DNA of 52,113 nucleotides from a virus (Duplodnaviria > Heunggongvirae > Uroviricota > Caudoviricetes). Both the position numbers and the translations under genes were made by a program. Below are positions 1,553 through 36,590 of the stretch, piece after piece. The stretch lies in the IMG/VR virus record IMGVR_UViG_2541047719_000006. The stretch is one strand, 5' to 3'. Every line of letters starts with the position of its first letter. The stretch's first letter is position 1. The notes beneath the pieces were generated by a model, which worked only from the letters and a program-made list of their open reading frames with translations, had not been told where the DNA came from and searched no databases.

Positions 1553-1741
1553 TCACGACGACTGAAGTTTCTCGCAATTAAAATTTATCAGTTTTACTTT
1601 CTGCTCTCTGGAAACGCCTGCTTCTTTTTTACCTGAGAGCATTTTTTCGCATTCTGATTTGGTTAATTTTGTTTTTGAGTACCTTGTCCAGTTAGTAGGA
1701 GTGCCACCTTCCTTTTCAATAGTGGCGGTAATTTTATACAT
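1553..1741 (-). CDS. ydaC: YdaC-like small prophage protein
   Basis: ORF 1553..1813; start at 1741 preferred because of GGAGGTG RBS 5 nt upstream; overlaps ralR stop by 8 nt; alternative starts 1753 and 1813. Confidence 0.5.
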   Translation of the reverse strand: MYKITATIEKEGGTPTNWTRYSKTKLTKSECEKMLSGKKEAGVSREQKVKLINFNCEKLQSS

Positions 1742-12620: not shown

Positions 12621-13307
12621 ATGACCCCAATAAAAATATTTATGACTATTGCTGATTTCAAACGGCCTAAATTGGAGCTCCCAAACGGGGCAAACAAACT
12701 ACTACTGCACTCTTGCTGTGCTCCATGTTCCGGTGAAGTGATGGAGGCGCTTCAGGCCTCGGGAATCGACTATACCATCTTTTTCTACAACCCGAACATT
12801 CATCCTCAGAAAGAGTATTTAATTCGTAAGGATGAGAATATTCGCTTTGCTGAACAACACGGCGTGCCATTTATTGATGCTGATTACGACACAGACAACT
12901 GGTTTGAACGTGCCAAAGGAATGGAATGGGAGCCCGAGAGGGGGATCCGTTGTACCATGTGTTTTGACATGCGTTTTGAGCGGACAGCGCTGTACGCTGC
13001 TGAAAATGGTTTCAGTGTGATCAGCAGTTCACTGGGCATTTCACGCTGGAAAAATATGCAGCAGGTTAACGACTGTGGGCGGCGAGCCGTCGCGCATTAT
13101 CCGGGCATGGTGTACTGGGATTATAACTGGCGCAAGCAGGGCGGCTCGTCCCGCATGATTGAAATCAGCAAGCGCGAAAAATTCTATCAGCAGGAATATT
13201 GTGGCTGTGTGTATTCTCTGCGCGATACCAATCTACACCGCAAATCTCAGGGACGCCCTCTTATCAAAATTGGTCAACTCCACTACGGTAAAGAAGAGAA
13301 GGAGTGA
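12621..13307 (+). CDS. DUF208/QueH-like epoxyqueuosine reductase family protein
   Basis: Motifs [42 protein letters not shown] match remembered QueH conserved Cys pattern; alternative start 12642; TTGACA hexamer at 12496. Confidence 0.55.
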
Positions 13308-13544
13308 TTTTATGGAGCACCTTTCTTATTGATTTCATATTGGCGAGGTAGCGGGAGTTAAGTAAAATTGCTGCGGGTGCTTGAGGCTATCTGCCTCAGG
13401 CATGAACACCAAAAGGCAGATAGAGAAAAGCCCCAGTTAACATTACGCGTCCTGCAAGACGCTTAACATTAATCTGAGGCTCAATCTATGCTGAACACAT
13501 GTAGGTTAGCCTCTTACGTGCCGAAAGGCAAGGAGAAGCAGGCT

Positions 13545-13700
13545 ATGAAGCAGCAAAAGGCGATGTTAATCGCCCTGATCGTCATCTGTTTAACCGTCAT
13601 AGTGACGGCACTGGTAACGAGGAAAGACCTCTGCGAGGTACGAATCCGAACCGGGCAGACGGAGGTCGCTGTCTTCACAGCTTACGAACCTGAGGAGTAA
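13545..13700 (+). CDS. hokD: Hok/Gef family type I toxin (HokD/RelF-like)
   Basis: 51 aa MKQQKAMLIALIVICLTVIVTALVTRKDLCEVRIRTGQTEVAVFTAYEPEE; AAGGAG RBS; in-frame upstream extension to 13488 in ORF track. Confidence 0.8.
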   Translation: MKQQKAMLIALIVICLTVIVTALVTRKDLCEVRIRTGQTEVAVFTAYEPEE

Positions 13701-13768: not shown

Positions 13769-13790
13769 AACCCGCTTCGGCGGGTTTTTT
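13769..13790 (+). terminator. Rho-independent terminator after hok
   Basis: AACCCGC-ttcg-GCGGG followed by TTTTTT; identical copy at 14609..14630. Confidence 0.6.
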
Positions 13791-13908
13791 CACGTACTGT
13801 GGTTGTGAATACGATTGGTATTAGGCTATGCTAACAACATTAGCCTGACTAATTTTGTATTGACTTAATTTTTGTTAAAGAACAGGACGGAGAAGTAAGG
13901 GTACACCA

Positions 13909-14088
13909 ATGAGCTACGCACTAAAAAAACACCCGCGATTGACTATTCCCCCTCGCGATAAAAGCGTTGTGGCAGCTCCGCGCCCGGCTATCGATGAAAA
14001 TTGCACTCATCGTGAGCAGGTGAAAAATGCTTTCGATTTCGGTTTTTCTCGTTACGAGAAGGCAATGGAAGATCTTTCAAAAGTGTAA
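13909..14088 (+). CDS. Small protein, candidate antitoxin partner of Doc
   Basis: 59-aa ORF read by hand (MSYALKKHPRLTIPPRDKSVVAAPRPAIDENCTHREQVKNAFDFGFSRYEKAMEDLSKV); ends 18 nt before Doc start; not in ORF track. Confidence 0.35.
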   Translation: MSYALKKHPRLTIPPRDKSVVAAPRPAIDENCTHREQVKNAFDFGFSRYEKAMEDLSKV

Positions 14089-14106
14089 TGATGGGTATTG
14101 TGCTCT

Positions 14107-14592
14107 ATGGCTGAGATTGTTGAAGGAGTGCACTACCTTTCGGTTGATGATCTTACTGAAATTAATCGCCTTTTAATTGAGCTTCAAACACCAGATGAAC
14201 CTGTTGGTGTGCTGAGTGTTGATAATTTAAGTTCTTCTCAGTCTCGTCCCAGTATGGTTCGATGGTATGAGCAAACCAACGACATGTTTGTACTGGCATC
14301 GGTATTGATTGAAAGTCTGATTCAGAATCATCCATTTGCCAATGCAAACAAGCGCACAGCAATGATGGCTGGTGCGGTTTTTTTATTGTTAAATGGATAC
14401 GAATTAACCGCACCAGGCGATGAAGTTGTGGAGATGGCTGAGGGGCTGGCCTGTAAAATTTATACACGAGAAGAGCTTGAAAATTGGTTGTGTTATTGGT
14501 CTCGTGCGTATGACAGTCGGGAATTATGTAAAACAGGCGCAACTATTGTTTTGTATGAAACTATCAAGCTTAAAATAGAACAGCAAAACTAA
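14107..14592 (+). CDS. Doc (death-on-curing) family toxin, Fic fold
   Basis: Motif HPFANANKRTA matches Doc signature H-x-F-x-(D/N)-A-N-K-R (P1 Doc HIFNDANKRTA); ORF track start 14098 is TTG, ATG at 14107. Confidence 0.7.
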   Translation: MAEIVEGVHYLSVDDLTEINRLLIELQTPDEPVGVLSVDNLSSSQSRPSMVRWYEQTNDMFVLASVLIESLIQNHPFANANKRTAMMAGAVFLLLNGYELTAPGDEVVEMAEGLACKIYTREELENWLCYWSRAYDSRELCKTGATIVLYETIKLKIEQQN

Positions 14593-14608
14593 AGATGCTT
14601 CTAATGAA

Positions 14609-14630
14609 AACCCGCTTCGGCGGGTTTTTT
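14609..14630 (+). terminator. Rho-independent terminator after doc
   Basis: AACCCGC-ttcg-GCGGG followed by TTTTTT, identical to 13769..13790. Confidence 0.6.
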
Positions 14631-14815
14631 GTTGCGTGCTGAATATGCAGGGTGAAAAATAACCATATATTTGATTATATACACAGCCAAAAATAAAAGT
14701 CATTGTACCTGCACATTAAACAATCAAATATACGACGTGAAATAAATATTTTTCAGATTAATATTTTTGTCTCTATGTGGATATAACCTTTTGTACTTAT
14801 AAACCTGGAGGCATC

Positions 14816-15699: not shown

Positions 15700-15989
15700 T
15701 GGTGGATTTACGTAAAGCGGCGCGGGGCCAGATGTGCCAGGTCAGAATCCCTGGCTACTGCAATCACAATCCCGAAACTTCTGTGCTGGCGCATTACAGG
15801 TTGGCAGGGACGTGCGGAACAGCGACAAAACCACACGATATGCAGGCAGCGATTGCCTGTAACTCATGCCACGATTTAATCGACGGGCGGGTAAAAACCA
15901 GCGATTACACCAAAGAAGAATTACGCCTGATGCATGCAGAAGGTGTTTTTCGCACGCAAGAAATCTGGAGAAAGGAAGGTTATTTATGA
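15699..15989 (+). CDS. DUF1364 putative nuclease (YbcO-like)
   Basis: 96 aa with multiple Cys/His (CQVRIPGYCNHN, CNSCHD); start overlaps previous stop (TAATG); precedes Q. Confidence 0.5.
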   Translation: MVDLRKAARGQMCQVRIPGYCNHNPETSVLAHYRLAGTCGTATKPHDMQAAIACNSCHDLIDGRVKTSDYTKEELRLMHAEGVFRTQEIWRKEGYL

Positions 15990-16522
15990 TTTACCCAACA
16001 AATACAGGCAAAAGCGGGGAACACCTTCGTCTCACCACGCTGGAAAGTGTCTGGATTCAGGGAAAACTGCGCATGTGGGGGCGCTGGTCGTATATTGGCG
16101 GCGGTAAGACGGGGAATATGTTTAACCAGTTGCTGGCGTCAAAAAAATTGACGAAAACAGCCATCAATGAAGCCCTGCGCAGAATGAAAAAAGCGGGAAT
16201 AGAGAAAGCTGAGCTGGAAGCGTTTTTGCGAGAGATGATCAACGGCAAGCAAAAGAGCTGGCTGGCGCATTGTACTGATGCAGAGGCACTAAAAATTGAT
16301 AGTGTTATAGGTGAAGTTCTGGCGGATCATCCAGGACTACTAAATGTCCTGAGTCAGCGTTATGTGGGGCGAGGGATGAGTAAGAGAAGGATGGCCGAGT
16401 TATTAAACGAACAGTACCCAGAGTGGGCGTTGATTACATGCCGACGTCGTGTTGATCAGTGGTTGCGTGTTGCTGAGTTCATTTTGTATTCACCTATGAG
16501 AGAAGCGTTCGATTATGCTTAA
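15986..16522 (+). CDS. Late-gene antitermination protein Q-like
   Basis: 178 aa from ATG 15986 (AAGGAAGG RBS, ATGA overlap with previous gene); immediately upstream of terminator, tRNAs and lysis cassette. Confidence 0.55.
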   Translation: MIYPTNTGKSGEHLRLTTLESVWIQGKLRMWGRWSYIGGGKTGNMFNQLLASKKLTKTAINEALRRMKKAGIEKAELEAFLREMINGKQKSWLAHCTDAEALKIDSVIGEVLADHPGLLNVLSQRYVGRGMSKRRMAELLNEQYPEWALITCRRRVDQWLRVAEFILYSPMREAFDYA

Positions 16523-16884: not shown

Positions 16885-16960
<76 letters not shown>

Positions 16961-16963
16961 TAT

Positions 16964-17038
<75 letters not shown>

Positions 17039-33193: not shown

Positions 33194-33316
33194 TTGTTAA
33201 TTACGTACACTCTGTTACAGAGATGTGATGGTGTCTTTAATTAAATCGATGATGCTCCTGGAGAAAAGCATTGCGTGGCCTCGTAATCGCTATATCTACT
33301 ATTATGTCGCCTGAAA

Positions 33317-33336
33317 CCCACTTCGGTGGGTTTTTT
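33317..33336 (+). terminator. Terminator-like hairpin upstream of tape measure gene
   Basis: CCCAC-ttcg-GTGGG followed by TTTTTT. Confidence 0.5.
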
Positions 33337-33356: not shown

Positions 33357-36300
33357 ATGGCAGAGCAAACCTCGCGTCTCGCAATAATTATTGATAGCAC
33401 TGGAGCGAAAAATAATGCTGACAATCTGGCCTCCTCATTAGTCAAAATGACGCAGGCTGGGGAAACTGCTGCAAATAGCGCAGGGAAAGTGACTAAGGCA
33501 ACAGAAGATGAGAAGAACGCGCTCGCAAAATTAAAAGCAGCTATTGATCCAGTTGGTGCCGCAATTGATACTGTCGGTCGACGCTATTCTGAATTAAAGA
33601 AATTTTTCGATAAAGGGCTTATTGATAAAGAAGAATATGAATTTCTTGTCCGTAAACTTAATGAAACCACAGAGGAATTGAGCGGGGTTGCGCAAGCGCA
33701 GAGAGAAGCCGAGAAGGCCGGAAAACTTGCTGCCGCCCAGCAGGAAGCGCAGGCTCAGGCCTTTCAAAGAATGCTGGACAAGATCGACCCTCTGGCTGCG
33801 GCGCTAAGAAATCTTGAACAACAGCAGGATGAACTTAATGCTGCGTTTGCATCCGGGAAAATAAATGGTTCTCAGTTTGAGAATTATAGCCGAAAAATAC
33901 AGGAAACACGGCGAGAGCTTACCGGAGAGGCTCAGGCAGAGCGAGAAGCAGCAAAAGCGCATGATGAACAGGTTGCTGCTTTGCAACGTCTGATTGCTCA
34001 ACTTGATCCTGTCGGAACTGCTTTTAATCGTCTGCTAGAACAACAGAAACAGCTCAATGAAGCAAAAGCTAAGGGGATGCTTTCTCCTGAAATGTATGAG
34101 GAGCTTTCTGGAAAACTTCGTGCTATGCGGAGTGAGCTTGAGGTTACTCAATCGCAATTAAGCAAAACCGGAATGTCGGCAAAACAAACGGCTTTTGCTA
34201 TGCGCATGTTGCCTGCACAAATGACGGATATTGTTGTTGGGTTGTCCACTGGTCAGTCGCCATTTATGGTGTTAATGCAGCAGGGCGGCCAGCTAAAAGA
34301 TATGTTCGGTGGGATTGGCCCGGCGATCAAAGGTGTAGGTTCTTATGTGCTGGGATTAATTAATCCTTTTACCCTGGCCGCAGCAGCCGTTGGCGTCTTA
34401 GGGCTGGCTTACTATAAAGGCTCTCAGGAGCAGGACGAATTTAATAAATCTCTTATTCTTACCGGAAATCAGTTGGGGACAACCAGCGGGCAATTGGCCG
34501 ATATAGCTCAACGTGCCGGGAATGCGGCTGATTCGACAACTGGCGCTGCGGCGGCAGTATTAAACCAGCTTGTGCGTTCGGGAAAGGTAGCGAGCAGTTC
34601 GCTGGAGCAAGTGACGACAGCGATAGTAAAAACGAGCGAAGTAACAGGAATATCAACCGAACAACTGGTTAATGACTTCAATGAAATTGCAAAGGATCCT
34701 GTCAGTGCTATATCAAAACTTAATGATCAGTACCATTTTCTGACACTTGCGACTTATAACCAGATTAAGGCGCTACAGGATGAAGGGAACCAGCAGGAGG
34801 CCGCCCGCATTGCGACAGAAGCATACTCATCCTCAATGATCCAGCGCACCAACCAGATTAAAGAAAATCTTGGTTATCTTGAGACTGCATGGAAAGCTGT
34901 CGCAGACTCCGCAAAATGGGCATGGGATTCCATGCTGGATATTGGCCGTGAGGCCTCCCTTGATCAAAAAATCTCAGATGTTCTCCGTCAAATTGATGAA
35001 ATAGAAAAAAATACCCGACCCGGAGTTTTCGGGTTAGGTGGCATTGGAGATGGCGGAGCTCAAAATAAAAAGCTGGCACGATTAAAGCAGCAATTGGGCG
35101 TACTTCAAGCAGAGAAAATTGCTCAGGACGTACTAAATTCATCAATAAACGATTACAACAAGCGACAACAGGAAGGAATTGAACTCAGACAGAGAGCAGA
35201 TGCTTTTTCAAAACAATATCAGACCCGGGAGCAGCAGAGAGCTAGTGAACTTGCAAAACTGGAAAAGCTAAAGAATCAGTATTCAAAGGAAGAATATAAT
35301 AATCTTATCGCTCAAATAAATGAGCGTTATAAAGATCCAAAGCAACCAAAGGCGAAAGGTTATTCGGATGATGCTGCCCAACGAATGATTGATCATCTGA
35401 ATCAACAGAATGCGTTACTAAGTTCACAAGCTGAATTGACCGTTAAATTAAGTTCCTCTGAACAGGAACTGGTTAAGTGGCGTCAGCAGATTGCCGACCT
35501 GGAGTCACGACCGTCATCGAAATTAACCCAGGATCAGAAATCGCTTCTCTTACACCGGGAAGAAATAACCGCGTTGATGGAGAAAAATGTTGCGATTGAA
35601 AAAAATAACAGGCTAATCAAGGAATCCGCCGAAATAGCTGCATGGCGTGATTCATTGCAGGCTTCGATTGATAATCGTCAACAGGGGTATGACATTCAGA
35701 TTGCTGGTTATGGGGTTGGCGATAAAAATCAGCAACGCCAGCAGGAATTACTGCGGATTGAACGTGAATATAACAATCAGCGTCTGCAACTTGAACGTGA
35801 CTATGCAGATAAATCCCGTGGAATGTCAAATCATGTTTTTCAGGAGAAAATGCAGGCTCTGAATGATGCTCTGGAACGAGAAAAAGAAATTGTCAGCCAG
35901 ATAAACGAGCAGCTCGATATTCAGGCAAGAGACTGGATTAGTGGTGCCTCCCAGGGATTCAATAACTGGCTGGATGACACTAAGGATATCGGTGCGCAGA
36001 TAAAATCAACCACGACTCAGATGTTTGATGGGATGACCGATGCGCTAGGTGATTTTGTCACGACAGGCAAGGCAAATTTTCGTTCTTTCGCTACTTCCGT
36101 GATTTCGGATCTTAGTCGAATTGCATTAAAGGCTTCAATTACTGGGATTTTCGACAGCATTAGTAACAGTTCTTCTGGGGGTATTTTAGGAACTATCGGG
36201 AGTGCTATTAGTAAATTTATTCCGAATGCAAAGGGCGGTGTTTATGAGTCTCCGTCATTGAGTACATATTCGAACGGTATTTATGACTCCCCGCAATTTT

Positions 36301-36590
36301 TTGCTTTTGCAAAAGGAGCTGGTGTTTTTGGTGAGGCTGGACCGGAAGCTATTATGCCATTAACGCGAACTTCCGATGGTTCTCTTGGTGTCAGAGCTAT
36401 TAATAGTAAAAGTGGTAATGGAGGCAGAGATATTACTTATGCCCCTGTATACCAAATCACTATTCAAAATGACGGCCAGAATGGAGAGATTGGTCCTCAG
36501 GCAATAAAAGCACTTATGGGGATGGTTGATCAGCGGGTGCAGGGCACTCTGTTAAATATGCGACGTGATGGAGGAATGTTAAGTGGCTAA
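33357..36590 (+). CDS. Tail tape measure protein
   Basis: 1077 aa, coiled-coil-rich N-terminal half; CAGGAG RBS; follows G/GT. Confidence 0.85.

Follow-up and report, generated by a model that had tools for sequence, protein, structure and literature searches.

Within the stretch of DNA analyzed here, a cassette of 840 bp was found which encodes a small protein of 59 amino acids and, behind it on the same strand, a toxin of the Doc subfamily of Fic proteins. The stretch is IMG/VR virus record IMGVR_UViG_2541047719_000006 (Caudoviricetes), comprises 52,113 nucleotides (nt), is referred to below as the window, and is evidently a Rac-like lambdoid prophage of Escherichia coli. We consider it likely that the cassette is a moron encoding a two-gene type II toxin-antitoxin pair in which the small protein inhibits Doc via a helix. 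Judged from its sequence, the small protein is probably the antitoxin of Doc and would represent a new minimal type. The novelty apparently lies in this unnamed minimal partner, which is not of the Phd/YefM type; the toxin is already known and has been named by the Prokaryotic Genome Annotation Pipeline (PGAP). The cassette unit extends from window position 13791 to 14630 and consists of a leader with a putative promoter, the gene for the 59-residue protein, doc, and a terminator. These elements and the hairpin bordering them on the left are as follows.

13769..13790, plus strand: left hairpin, assigned as the native intrinsic terminator of hokD and left boundary of the cassette (exact match, folding, matches in E. 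coli genomes).
13791..13908, plus strand: AT-rich putative regulatory leader of 118 bp (37% GC), absent from the cassette-free relative.
13909..14088, plus strand: small open reading frame (ORF) of 59 amino acids, candidate antitoxin (phrog_2208, ratio of nonsynonymous to synonymous substitution rates (dN/dS), AlphaFold2 model).
14107..14592, plus strand: doc, encoding a 161-residue Fic protein of the Doc subfamily (TIGR01550, PF02661, phrog_577, motif, PGAP).
14607..14630, plus strand: right hairpin AAAACCCGC-TTCG-GCGGGTTTT followed by a T-run, assigned as the cassette's own intrinsic terminator and right boundary (folding, retention after doc).

The initial annotation had assigned the toxin to the Doc family from the motif HPFANANKRTA, and this assignment was confirmed by profile searches. 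The protein passed the curated cut-offs of both TIGR01550 (120.7 bits; cut-off 38.65) and PF02661 (45.3; cut-off 24), and it matched phrog_577, described as 'Doc-like toxin', with E=1e-48. The motif covers residues 75-85 of the 161-residue protein with the catalytic stretch H75-P-F-A-N-A-N-K82-R83; residues H75, F77, N79, N81, K82, and R83 were invariant in 30 homologues of 63-94% identity. The Doc-type motif HxFx(D/N)(A/G)NKR is intact, with K replacing the G of Fic. The nearest solved structure was Doc of Enterococcus faecalis (PDB 9VZC, E=6e-14), where the aligned motif reads HCFYNANKR. P1 Doc (3K33) was matched with E=1.8e-4 over about 60 residues (aligned motif HIFNDANKR), and the protein studied here has a C-terminal extension of 35 residues. 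A search of PADLOC-DB 2.0 with Doc gave only weak partial matches to candidate systems, the best with E 0.0016 over about 45 residues near the Fic motif. In a strain with 100% identical DNA, PGAP labels the protein 'type II toxin-antitoxin system death-on-curing family toxin' (WP_000818163.1). The length of 164 amino acids given previously had to be corrected, as it reflects a mechanical ORF starting at TTG 14098; the N-terminus MAE(I/F)VEG, conserved in all relatives, and the RefSeq start at ATG 14107 give 161 amino acids. These features mark the toxin as a genuine Fic protein of the Doc subfamily and an ordinary member of a known family. Castro-Roa and colleagues in 2013 and Cruz and colleagues in 2014, whose papers are cited in PMC10440598 and PMC11869752, are said to have found that P1 and Salmonella Doc phosphorylate EF-Tu, thereby halting translation; by analogy, the Doc protein encoded here would be an EF-Tu kinase toxin.

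The small ORF ends 18 nt before the ATG of doc at position 14107, as had been described; the statement that it was unannotated did not hold, since PGAP already calls it a 'hypothetical protein' (WP_000119355.1) in the strain with 100% identical DNA. Comparison of diverged E. coli copies of the small ORF gave dN/dS values of 0.05-0.11 at a dS of about 0.5-0.6. When the copies from Ewingella and Salmonella were compared, synonymous sites were saturated and the proteins were still 73-78% identical. The small ORF is thus evidently a real, translated gene under strong purifying selection. It was matched end to end by phrog_2208, a family of unknown function, with E=5e-42. An exhaustive search with a hidden Markov model through 1.84 billion protein representatives yielded just 36 family members, with lengths of 38-95 amino acids and free of domain fusions; the exception was one protein of 1,274 amino acids, which was matched only via a low-complexity N-terminal part (E=8e-5). 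The wider family conserves L-x-I-P-x-R-D-K near the N-terminus and QV-x-NAF-x3-F-x-RYEKA-x3-LSKV at the C-terminus. In the small protein of the window, residues 1-33 are basic, proline-rich, and predicted to be disordered, and residues 34-57 are predicted to form an amphipathic helix (QVKNAFDFGFSRYEKAMEDLSKV). The sources list the partner family namelessly as 'hypothetical', as 'bacteriophage protein', or under PHROG as 'unknown function'. A literature search retrieved no paper on the pair of small ORF and Doc, and in a review from 2025 on the type II systems of E. coli, Phd/Doc appears solely as a plasmid locus.

A member of the small-ORF family was located 3-18 nt upstream of a gene of this Doc subfamily, on the same strand, in every locus examined, covering about 14 genera and at least five genomic contexts. 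Seven E. coli loci contained the pair, the copies being either identical or diverged, and it was also present in Ewingella and Salmonella. A scan of species loci was carried out with one genome per species and the closer family alignment, the wide alignment being too diverse. It revealed the pair in 12 of 12 loci, from Serratia, Citrobacter, Kluyvera, Hafnia, Morganella, Rosenbergiella, Providencia, Izhakiella, and Yersinia pestis. Furthermore, the pair was found in Xenorhabdus and Pantoea, where the loci had been located starting from Doc, and in two P2-like phages of Pseudomonas. Within the phage collection, this Doc subfamily was encoded by three records, and the small ORF was carried by these three and no others. 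The pair follows hokD in lambdoid prophages, is placed between tail and baseplate genes in myovirus-type prophages, and is located between integrase and tRNA attachment site in P2-like phages; a further context is a Salmonella cluster with ParDE and VapBC. Because these surroundings differ widely, the two genes can be regarded as the unit that moves. The antitoxin-toxin layout proposed in the initial annotation was therefore supported: the small gene comes first, the gap is short, and co-occurrence with the Doc subfamily was strict in every locus examined.

Two loci are described separately. A prophage of Salmonella enterica (DAAWNC010000008; locus L005, 3496-6009) harbors a dense cluster of toxin-antitoxin genes, in which a hok gene on the opposite strand is followed by the pair of small ORF and Doc, then by ParE/ParD and a PIN/VapB pair. 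In Salmonella phage SW-37 (locus L030, CP051275.1, 25146-26790), the small ORF contains one frameshift and doc at least two; these may reflect joint decay, which would agree with an antitoxin being lost only along with its toxin, or indel errors in an unannotated assembly, and were given no weight.

The structure of the small protein was predicted with AlphaFold2 using 14 homologues. Residues 1-33 were modeled as coil and residues 34-57 as a helix with a predicted local distance difference test (pLDDT) score of about 80; the mean pLDDT was 72.6. In the model, the conserved residues V38, A41/F42, F46, Y49, A52/M53, L56, and V59 share one face of the helix. In PDB entry 3DD7, the Doc-binding peptide consists of Phd residues 51-73, and the hot spots found by an alanine scan of Salmonella Phd are F56, I59, M60, H63, L67, and L70, of which F56 and L70 act as 'gatekeepers' (PMC9207808). 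In a gapless register anchored at the C-terminus, Phd residues F56, M/F60, H/L63, L67, and L70 correspond to F42, F46, Y49, M53, and L56 of the small protein. In close homologues, residues F46, Y49, M53, and L56 are invariant and F42 almost invariant; across the wider family, near invariance is limited to Y49 and L56, and the other positions are hydrophobic. The C-anchored register scored best among 51 Phd registers compared with the family profile, it beat 99.7% of shuffles (p 0.003), and only one of 581 unrelated ORF C-termini outscored it. On the basis of this model, the helix of the partner may be functionally analogous to the C-terminal helix of Phd.

We propose the following mechanism. 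In the lysogen, transcription of the operon would start at a promoter of its own, and translation of doc would be coupled to that of the small ORF, given the gap of 18 nt (3-18 nt elsewhere) and the lack of a good ribosome-binding site. The small protein would use its C-terminal helix, the hydrophobic face of which is invariant, to bind Doc and hold the toxin inactive. Being largely disordered, it would probably be unstable. Once the partner is no longer replenished, either by loss of the prophage or by host shut-off imposed by an infecting phage, free Doc would phosphorylate EF-Tu and translation would stop. The outcome would be stabilization of the prophage and/or abortive infection.

The leader was inspected for signals of expression and regulation. 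Reading from the sequence, the best promoter candidate consists of TTGTGA (13803-13808), a spacer of 18 nt, and TATGCT (13827-13832), with 8 of 12 consensus positions; a Shine-Dalgarno-like AAGGG is located 7 nt upstream of the ATG of the small ORF. The leaders are apparently exchangeable, because homology between diverged copies from E. coli begins only at the ATG of the small ORF; a block ATTAGGCTATGCTAAC (13820-13835) is common to otherwise unalignable leaders. A motif search in the leaders revealed a short block TAGNCTA in 4 of 21, and in three of these it is located about 88 nt upstream of the ATG; this is too weak for an operator to be called. Clear promoters are present in orthologous cassettes: TTGACT-17-CATTAT in Providencia and Morganella (9/12 in Providencia) and TTGACA-18-AACAAT in the Pseudomonas phages (10/12). 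The spacer in Providencia and Morganella holds a dyad of 20 bp, AATG(A/T)AA(C/G)TTA(A/G)CTT(T/A)CATT, about 100-70 nt upstream of the small ORF (locus L017 at about 1545-1570, with equivalents in L019, L022, L023, and L024). Its arms vary symmetrically across species, A to T in one arm being accompanied by T to A in the other, which suggests an operator for a dimeric protein.

Several observations weigh against an antitoxin that acts on Doc through this helix. The small ORF had no match in Pfam or NCBIfam (E<=1), in PADLOC, or in a profile search of the PDB. The N-terminal domain of Phd/YefM (PF02604) is absent, residues 1-33 being predicted as coil, and a comparison of the small family with the Phd alignment by hhalign gave a probability of 0.84% and a match of seven columns in a different register. 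An analogous helix is therefore claimed and not homology to Phd; the earlier remark that the small protein does not obviously resemble Phd/YefM agrees with these searches. The hydrophobic periodicity is generic to amphipathic helices and the helix could serve homodimerization instead. A recognizable DNA-binding fold is lacking, which leaves classical autoregulation unexplained, and in the leader of the window neither a promoter with at least 9 of 12 positions nor a strong palindrome was found. On the side of the toxin, the AlphaFold2 model of Doc calculated with 30 homologues was all-helical and of low confidence (pLDDT 54.4), so that the fold is without structural confirmation; a Foldseek comparison of this poor model with the PDB listed P1 Doc (3dd7_A) first with E=0.43 and a template modeling score of 0.30, which is not significant and was kept out of the evidence. 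Finally, the choice of EF-Tu as the target is an extrapolation from the Doc proteins of P1 and Salmonella, with an identity of just about 25%.

Some of these observations would also fit a different role. The small protein could be a co-factor of Doc, a specificity subunit, or a transcription regulator, with Doc acting as a non-toxic modifier in phage development or defense. The searches revealed no homology to an antitoxin family, its basic N-terminus and possibly dimerizing helix could bind DNA or RNA, and orthologous leaders bear the dyad-symmetric sites in or near the promoter. Moreover, the cassette often resides in tail-gene clusters or beside attachment sites, where accessory and defense genes accumulate. 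We regard this explanation as doubtful, however. The catalytic motif of Doc is invariant, as in proven toxins, and the order with the small gene first, the tiny gap, the obligate pairing, and the joint mobility are the standard signature of type II systems. Classical antitoxins can be regulators too, so the two roles are not exclusive.

A more specific version of the antitoxin reading joins several of its elements. The small proteins would form a new minimal class of Doc inhibitors which, without a DNA-binding domain, combines a docking helix with an N-terminal pseudosubstrate, and the pair would be a prophage module for abortive infection or superinfection exclusion. In the P1 paradigm, Thr382 is the residue of EF-Tu that is phosphorylated. 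The conserved I-P-x-R-D-K-x-(V/I)-(V/I)-A might mimic the EF-Tu loop G-G-R-T382-V-G-A-G-V-V-A, the phospho-acceptor Thr being replaced by Asp, and the module would fire upon shut-off of host expression by an incoming phage. Taken as a whole, this combination is unlikely.

It is very unlikely that Doc is an orphan which is inactive or neutralized in trans by an antitoxin of the Phd/YefM type or another kind, the small ORF being an unrelated passenger. The missing Phd/YefM domain and the presence of other toxin-antitoxin loci in the prophage, ralR/RalA and hok/sok, would be compatible with this explanation. On the other hand, the pair moves as a two-gene unit across genomes and genera with no third conserved gene traveling along, homology of the diverged E. 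coli copies begins exactly at the ATG of the small ORF, and both genes are under strong purifying selection. A passenger would hardly stay attached at 50-55% identity in Pseudomonas. The orphan toxin considered in the initial annotation is thus disfavored, and the small ORF as a new partner is strongly supported by strict pairing, purifying selection, and the lack of a match to Phd/YefM or any other named family.

The cassette had initially been described as an inserted unit framed by terminators, and alignment with a cassette-free relative had been set beforehand as a check. Phage PP818812, which is 97% identical on both flanks, contains hok, one terminator copy, and then the same downstream sequence. 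The difference amounts to exactly 840 bp, i.e., 818 unique bp and one 22-bp repeat, and the boundaries of the insertion coincide with the repeated terminator; the initial description as an inserted unit was thereby confirmed. In 131 E. coli genomes, matches covered 80% or more of the empty-site sequence, which consists of hokD, one terminator copy, and this downstream sequence. The cassette itself is carried by 125 of 5,426 complete E. coli genomes, including the O104:H4, O157:H7, and O121 outbreak lineages. Gain and loss of the cassette are indistinguishable from this comparison. The record PP818812.1 is deposited as 'Actinobacillus phage vB_Apl-pPE4'; over the hok/sok and DUF1367 region it is 97% identical to an E. 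coli lambdoid prophage, and the stated host looks doubtful.

Morons are said to have been recognized by Juhala, Hendrix, and colleagues in their comparison of HK97 and HK022. As in lambdoid morons, the cassette is an extra unit between genes that are adjacent in a relative, it has its own terminator and, in relatives, a promoter, and its GC content is lower than that of its surroundings (41% vs 47% across the window). The factor-independent terminator was kept after doc in all contexts and genera examined. By this anatomy the 840-bp unit is probably a classic phage moron, i.e., a self-contained add-on transcription unit. Unlike these morons, it adjoins a neighbor's terminator that is identical to its own, and the resulting 22-bp direct repeat would make exact excision or re-assortment possible. 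Both the presence/absence polymorphism and the changing right-hand neighbors break exactly at the hairpin, and this pattern fits recombination at micro-homology; the 22-bp identity may offer a short homology for precise gain or loss of the cassette or for re-joining it to new right-hand neighbors.

The repeat itself, AACCCGCTTCGGCGGGTTTTTT, occurs in two mismatch-free copies at 13769-13790 and 14609-14630, as had been noted before; no match was obtained in 100 dinucleotide-preserving shuffles (expected count 0.00). Both copies fold into a GC-rich stem with a UUCG loop followed by a U-run, with energies of -11.9 kcal/mol for the left and -14.9 kcal/mol for the right hairpin. A simple terminator scanner missed both hairpins, apparently because it counted the A/T runs as part of the stem, which left too few T for the tail. 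The two repeats evidently belong to separate modules, one being the native terminator of hokD and the other that of the Doc cassette. The left hairpin is assigned to hokD because an intact hok/sok locus lies directly upstream, outside the cassette.

13375..13700, plus strand: hok/sok type I toxin-antitoxin locus of the hokD type (Rfam, Pfam, PGAP).

In this locus, which includes the Sok-complementary leader, Rfam sok (RF01794) matched at 13375-13550 with 119.6 bits against a gathering score of 59. The mok/hok reading frame spans 13488-13700; it matched PF01848 (HOK_GEF) with E=3e-23, and PGAP calls hokD in identical DNA. The hokD segment was matched in about 4,700 of the 5,426 complete E. coli genomes, K-12 BW25113 included. 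In most of 25 records sampled across the ranking, the match stops at the end of the hairpin's T-run or a few bases from it, and phage matches stop at 13788-13795.

The right hairpin was located downstream of doc in all seven E. coli loci, and five different sequences follow its T-run. In E. coli locus L009 it stands after doc, yet neither hok nor a left copy is present, and in O121 the left copy is decayed with the right copy intact. The same or a compensated hairpin closes the cassette in Xenorhabdus, Pantoea, Citrobacter, Morganella, Providencia, and Ewingella, where Doc is only 63-70% identical. It reads AACCCGCTTCGGCGGGTTTTT in Xenorhabdus and AGCCCGCTTCGGCGGGTTTTTT in Citrobacter; the loop is TTTG in Pantoea, TCAG in Morganella, and TCCG in Ewingella, and the Providencia stem is CCCAC/GTGGG. 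The consensus terminator of rsmX, an unrelated small RNA (sRNA) family of Pseudomonas, is the same hairpin, which therefore appears to be a recurrent 'ideal' terminator that arises independently of the Doc cassette.

It is extremely improbable that the repeats arose instead by duplication of a target site or are the ends of an element inserted by transposition or site-specifically. Perfect direct repeats around the unit and a single copy at the empty site would suit such an element, but neither a gene for a transposase or recombinase nor terminal inverted repeats were found in the 818 bp. Moreover, thousands of genomes contain the left copy as the hokD terminator without the cassette; in L009, Citrobacter, Xenorhabdus, and Pantoea, doc is followed by the right copy although a left copy or hok is absent. 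Decay of the left copy in O121 was independent of the right one, and the hairpin recurs in rsmX. As each copy exists without the other in different genomes, this reading was dropped.

Additional observations concern the terminators. By its form the right hairpin is bidirectional, with an A-run on its 5' side. A minus-strand promoter-like site at 14674-14703 (ATGACT-18-TATAAT, 10/12), the best of the region, is aimed at the cassette terminator, and the cassette-free relative has it too. Owing to the A-run, the terminator could work in both directions and would face this site. A third copy of the hairpin, AACCCACTTCGGTGGGTTTTTT, is located at 33315-33336 on the plus strand, just upstream of a 1077-residue ORF (33357-36590). 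It carries two compensating stem changes (G>A, C>T), and this variant also terminates the Doc cassette in Providencia locus L022.

In the prophage, the integrase is located at the left end and late genes lie beyond the tRNAs; the cassette occupies the early-right (nin-like) region directly after the hokD terminator. RalA sRNA was detected at window position 1557-1735 on the plus strand (Rfam RF02694, 215 bits), indicating a ralR/RalA type I locus beside recET-like genes. With hok/sok and the Doc pair included, the number of toxin-antitoxin loci in this one prophage is at least three. Just upstream of hok/sok, a 228-residue ORF (12621-13307, plus strand) showed a full-length match to epoxyqueuosine reductase QueH (PF02677, E=1.9e-65). 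This ORF is missing from the otherwise identical region of strain M19, and a lone gene of the queuosine pathway is unusual for a lambdoid prophage. Genes for tRNA-Thr (TGT) and tRNA-Gly (TCC) are located at 16885-17038 on the plus strand, downstream of a 218-residue ORF (15866-16522). In strain M19, whose prophage is nearly identical, four tRNAs are located at this place (Ile, Arg, Thr, Gly); the tRNA array therefore varies among close relatives.

Doc toxins serve as a model both of Fic enzymes of the kinase type and of antitoxins that act via intrinsic disorder, and mechanistic knowledge of Doc comes almost entirely from Phd-type partners. Partner swapping among type II systems is well documented; a specialist would therefore not be greatly surprised by a new partner of Doc. 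If our reading is correct, the partner would be a minimal natural Doc inhibitor and could serve as a peptide template; peptides derived from Phd are already under exploration as Doc inhibitors. Annotation pipelines would then no longer need to report such doc genes as lone toxins. The cassette also occurs in many other prophages of Enterobacterales and Pseudomonas, and the partner family is simple, widespread, and easy to test. The terminators would provide a clean natural example of how morons in mosaic phage genomes can be gained, lost, and re-assorted at identical 'ideal' terminators that act as joints of micro-homology.

The closest known counterparts are Phd-Doc of P1 (3K33, 3DD7) and its homologue of Salmonella Typhimurium, with which the pair shares the Doc-subfamily toxin, the small gene upstream on the same strand, and carriage by temperate phages. 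The predicted helix of the partner has the hot-spot spacing F56/F60/L63/L67/L70 and ends three residues past the last of these, as does Phd. In contrast to Phd, the partner possesses neither the Phd/YefM N-terminal domain nor significant profile similarity to Phd, and the locus is a moron in lambdoid, myovirus-like, and P2-like prophages, whereas that of P1 is a plasmid-prophage addiction locus. The Phd-Doc system of E. faecalis (9VZC) contains the closest solved Doc, and its antitoxin acts via a C-terminal bent helix without sequence similarity to P1 Phd (PMC13034048). Partners of Doc can therefore diverge beyond recognition. Unlike the 59-residue family, to which the PDB search gave no sequence match, the E. 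faecalis antitoxin comprises 79 amino acids and has a beta-sheet DNA-binding N-terminal domain.

A further counterpart is PanA(Phd-C)-Doc of Corynebacterium doosanense. In the NetFlax study, a Phd-C helix stabilized by SUMO neutralized a Doc on its own, and antitoxins made solely of the neutralizing element exist (the 'linear neutralising element' model; PMC10440598). The concept of a short helical element as neutralizer, with an exchangeable or dispensable remainder, is shared with our pair. The Panacea domain is absent here; in its place stands a disordered N-terminus of 33 residues with its own conserved IPxRDK. PaaA2 is a small antitoxin which is largely disordered and is not known to have a DNA-binding domain. 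Like the Doc cassette, paaR2-paaA2-parE2 from a cryptic prophage of E. coli O157:H7 is a prophage-borne type II system (PMC8630535); it differs by its separate regulator gene paaR2 and its ParE-type toxin, whereas the cassette described here consists of two genes only.

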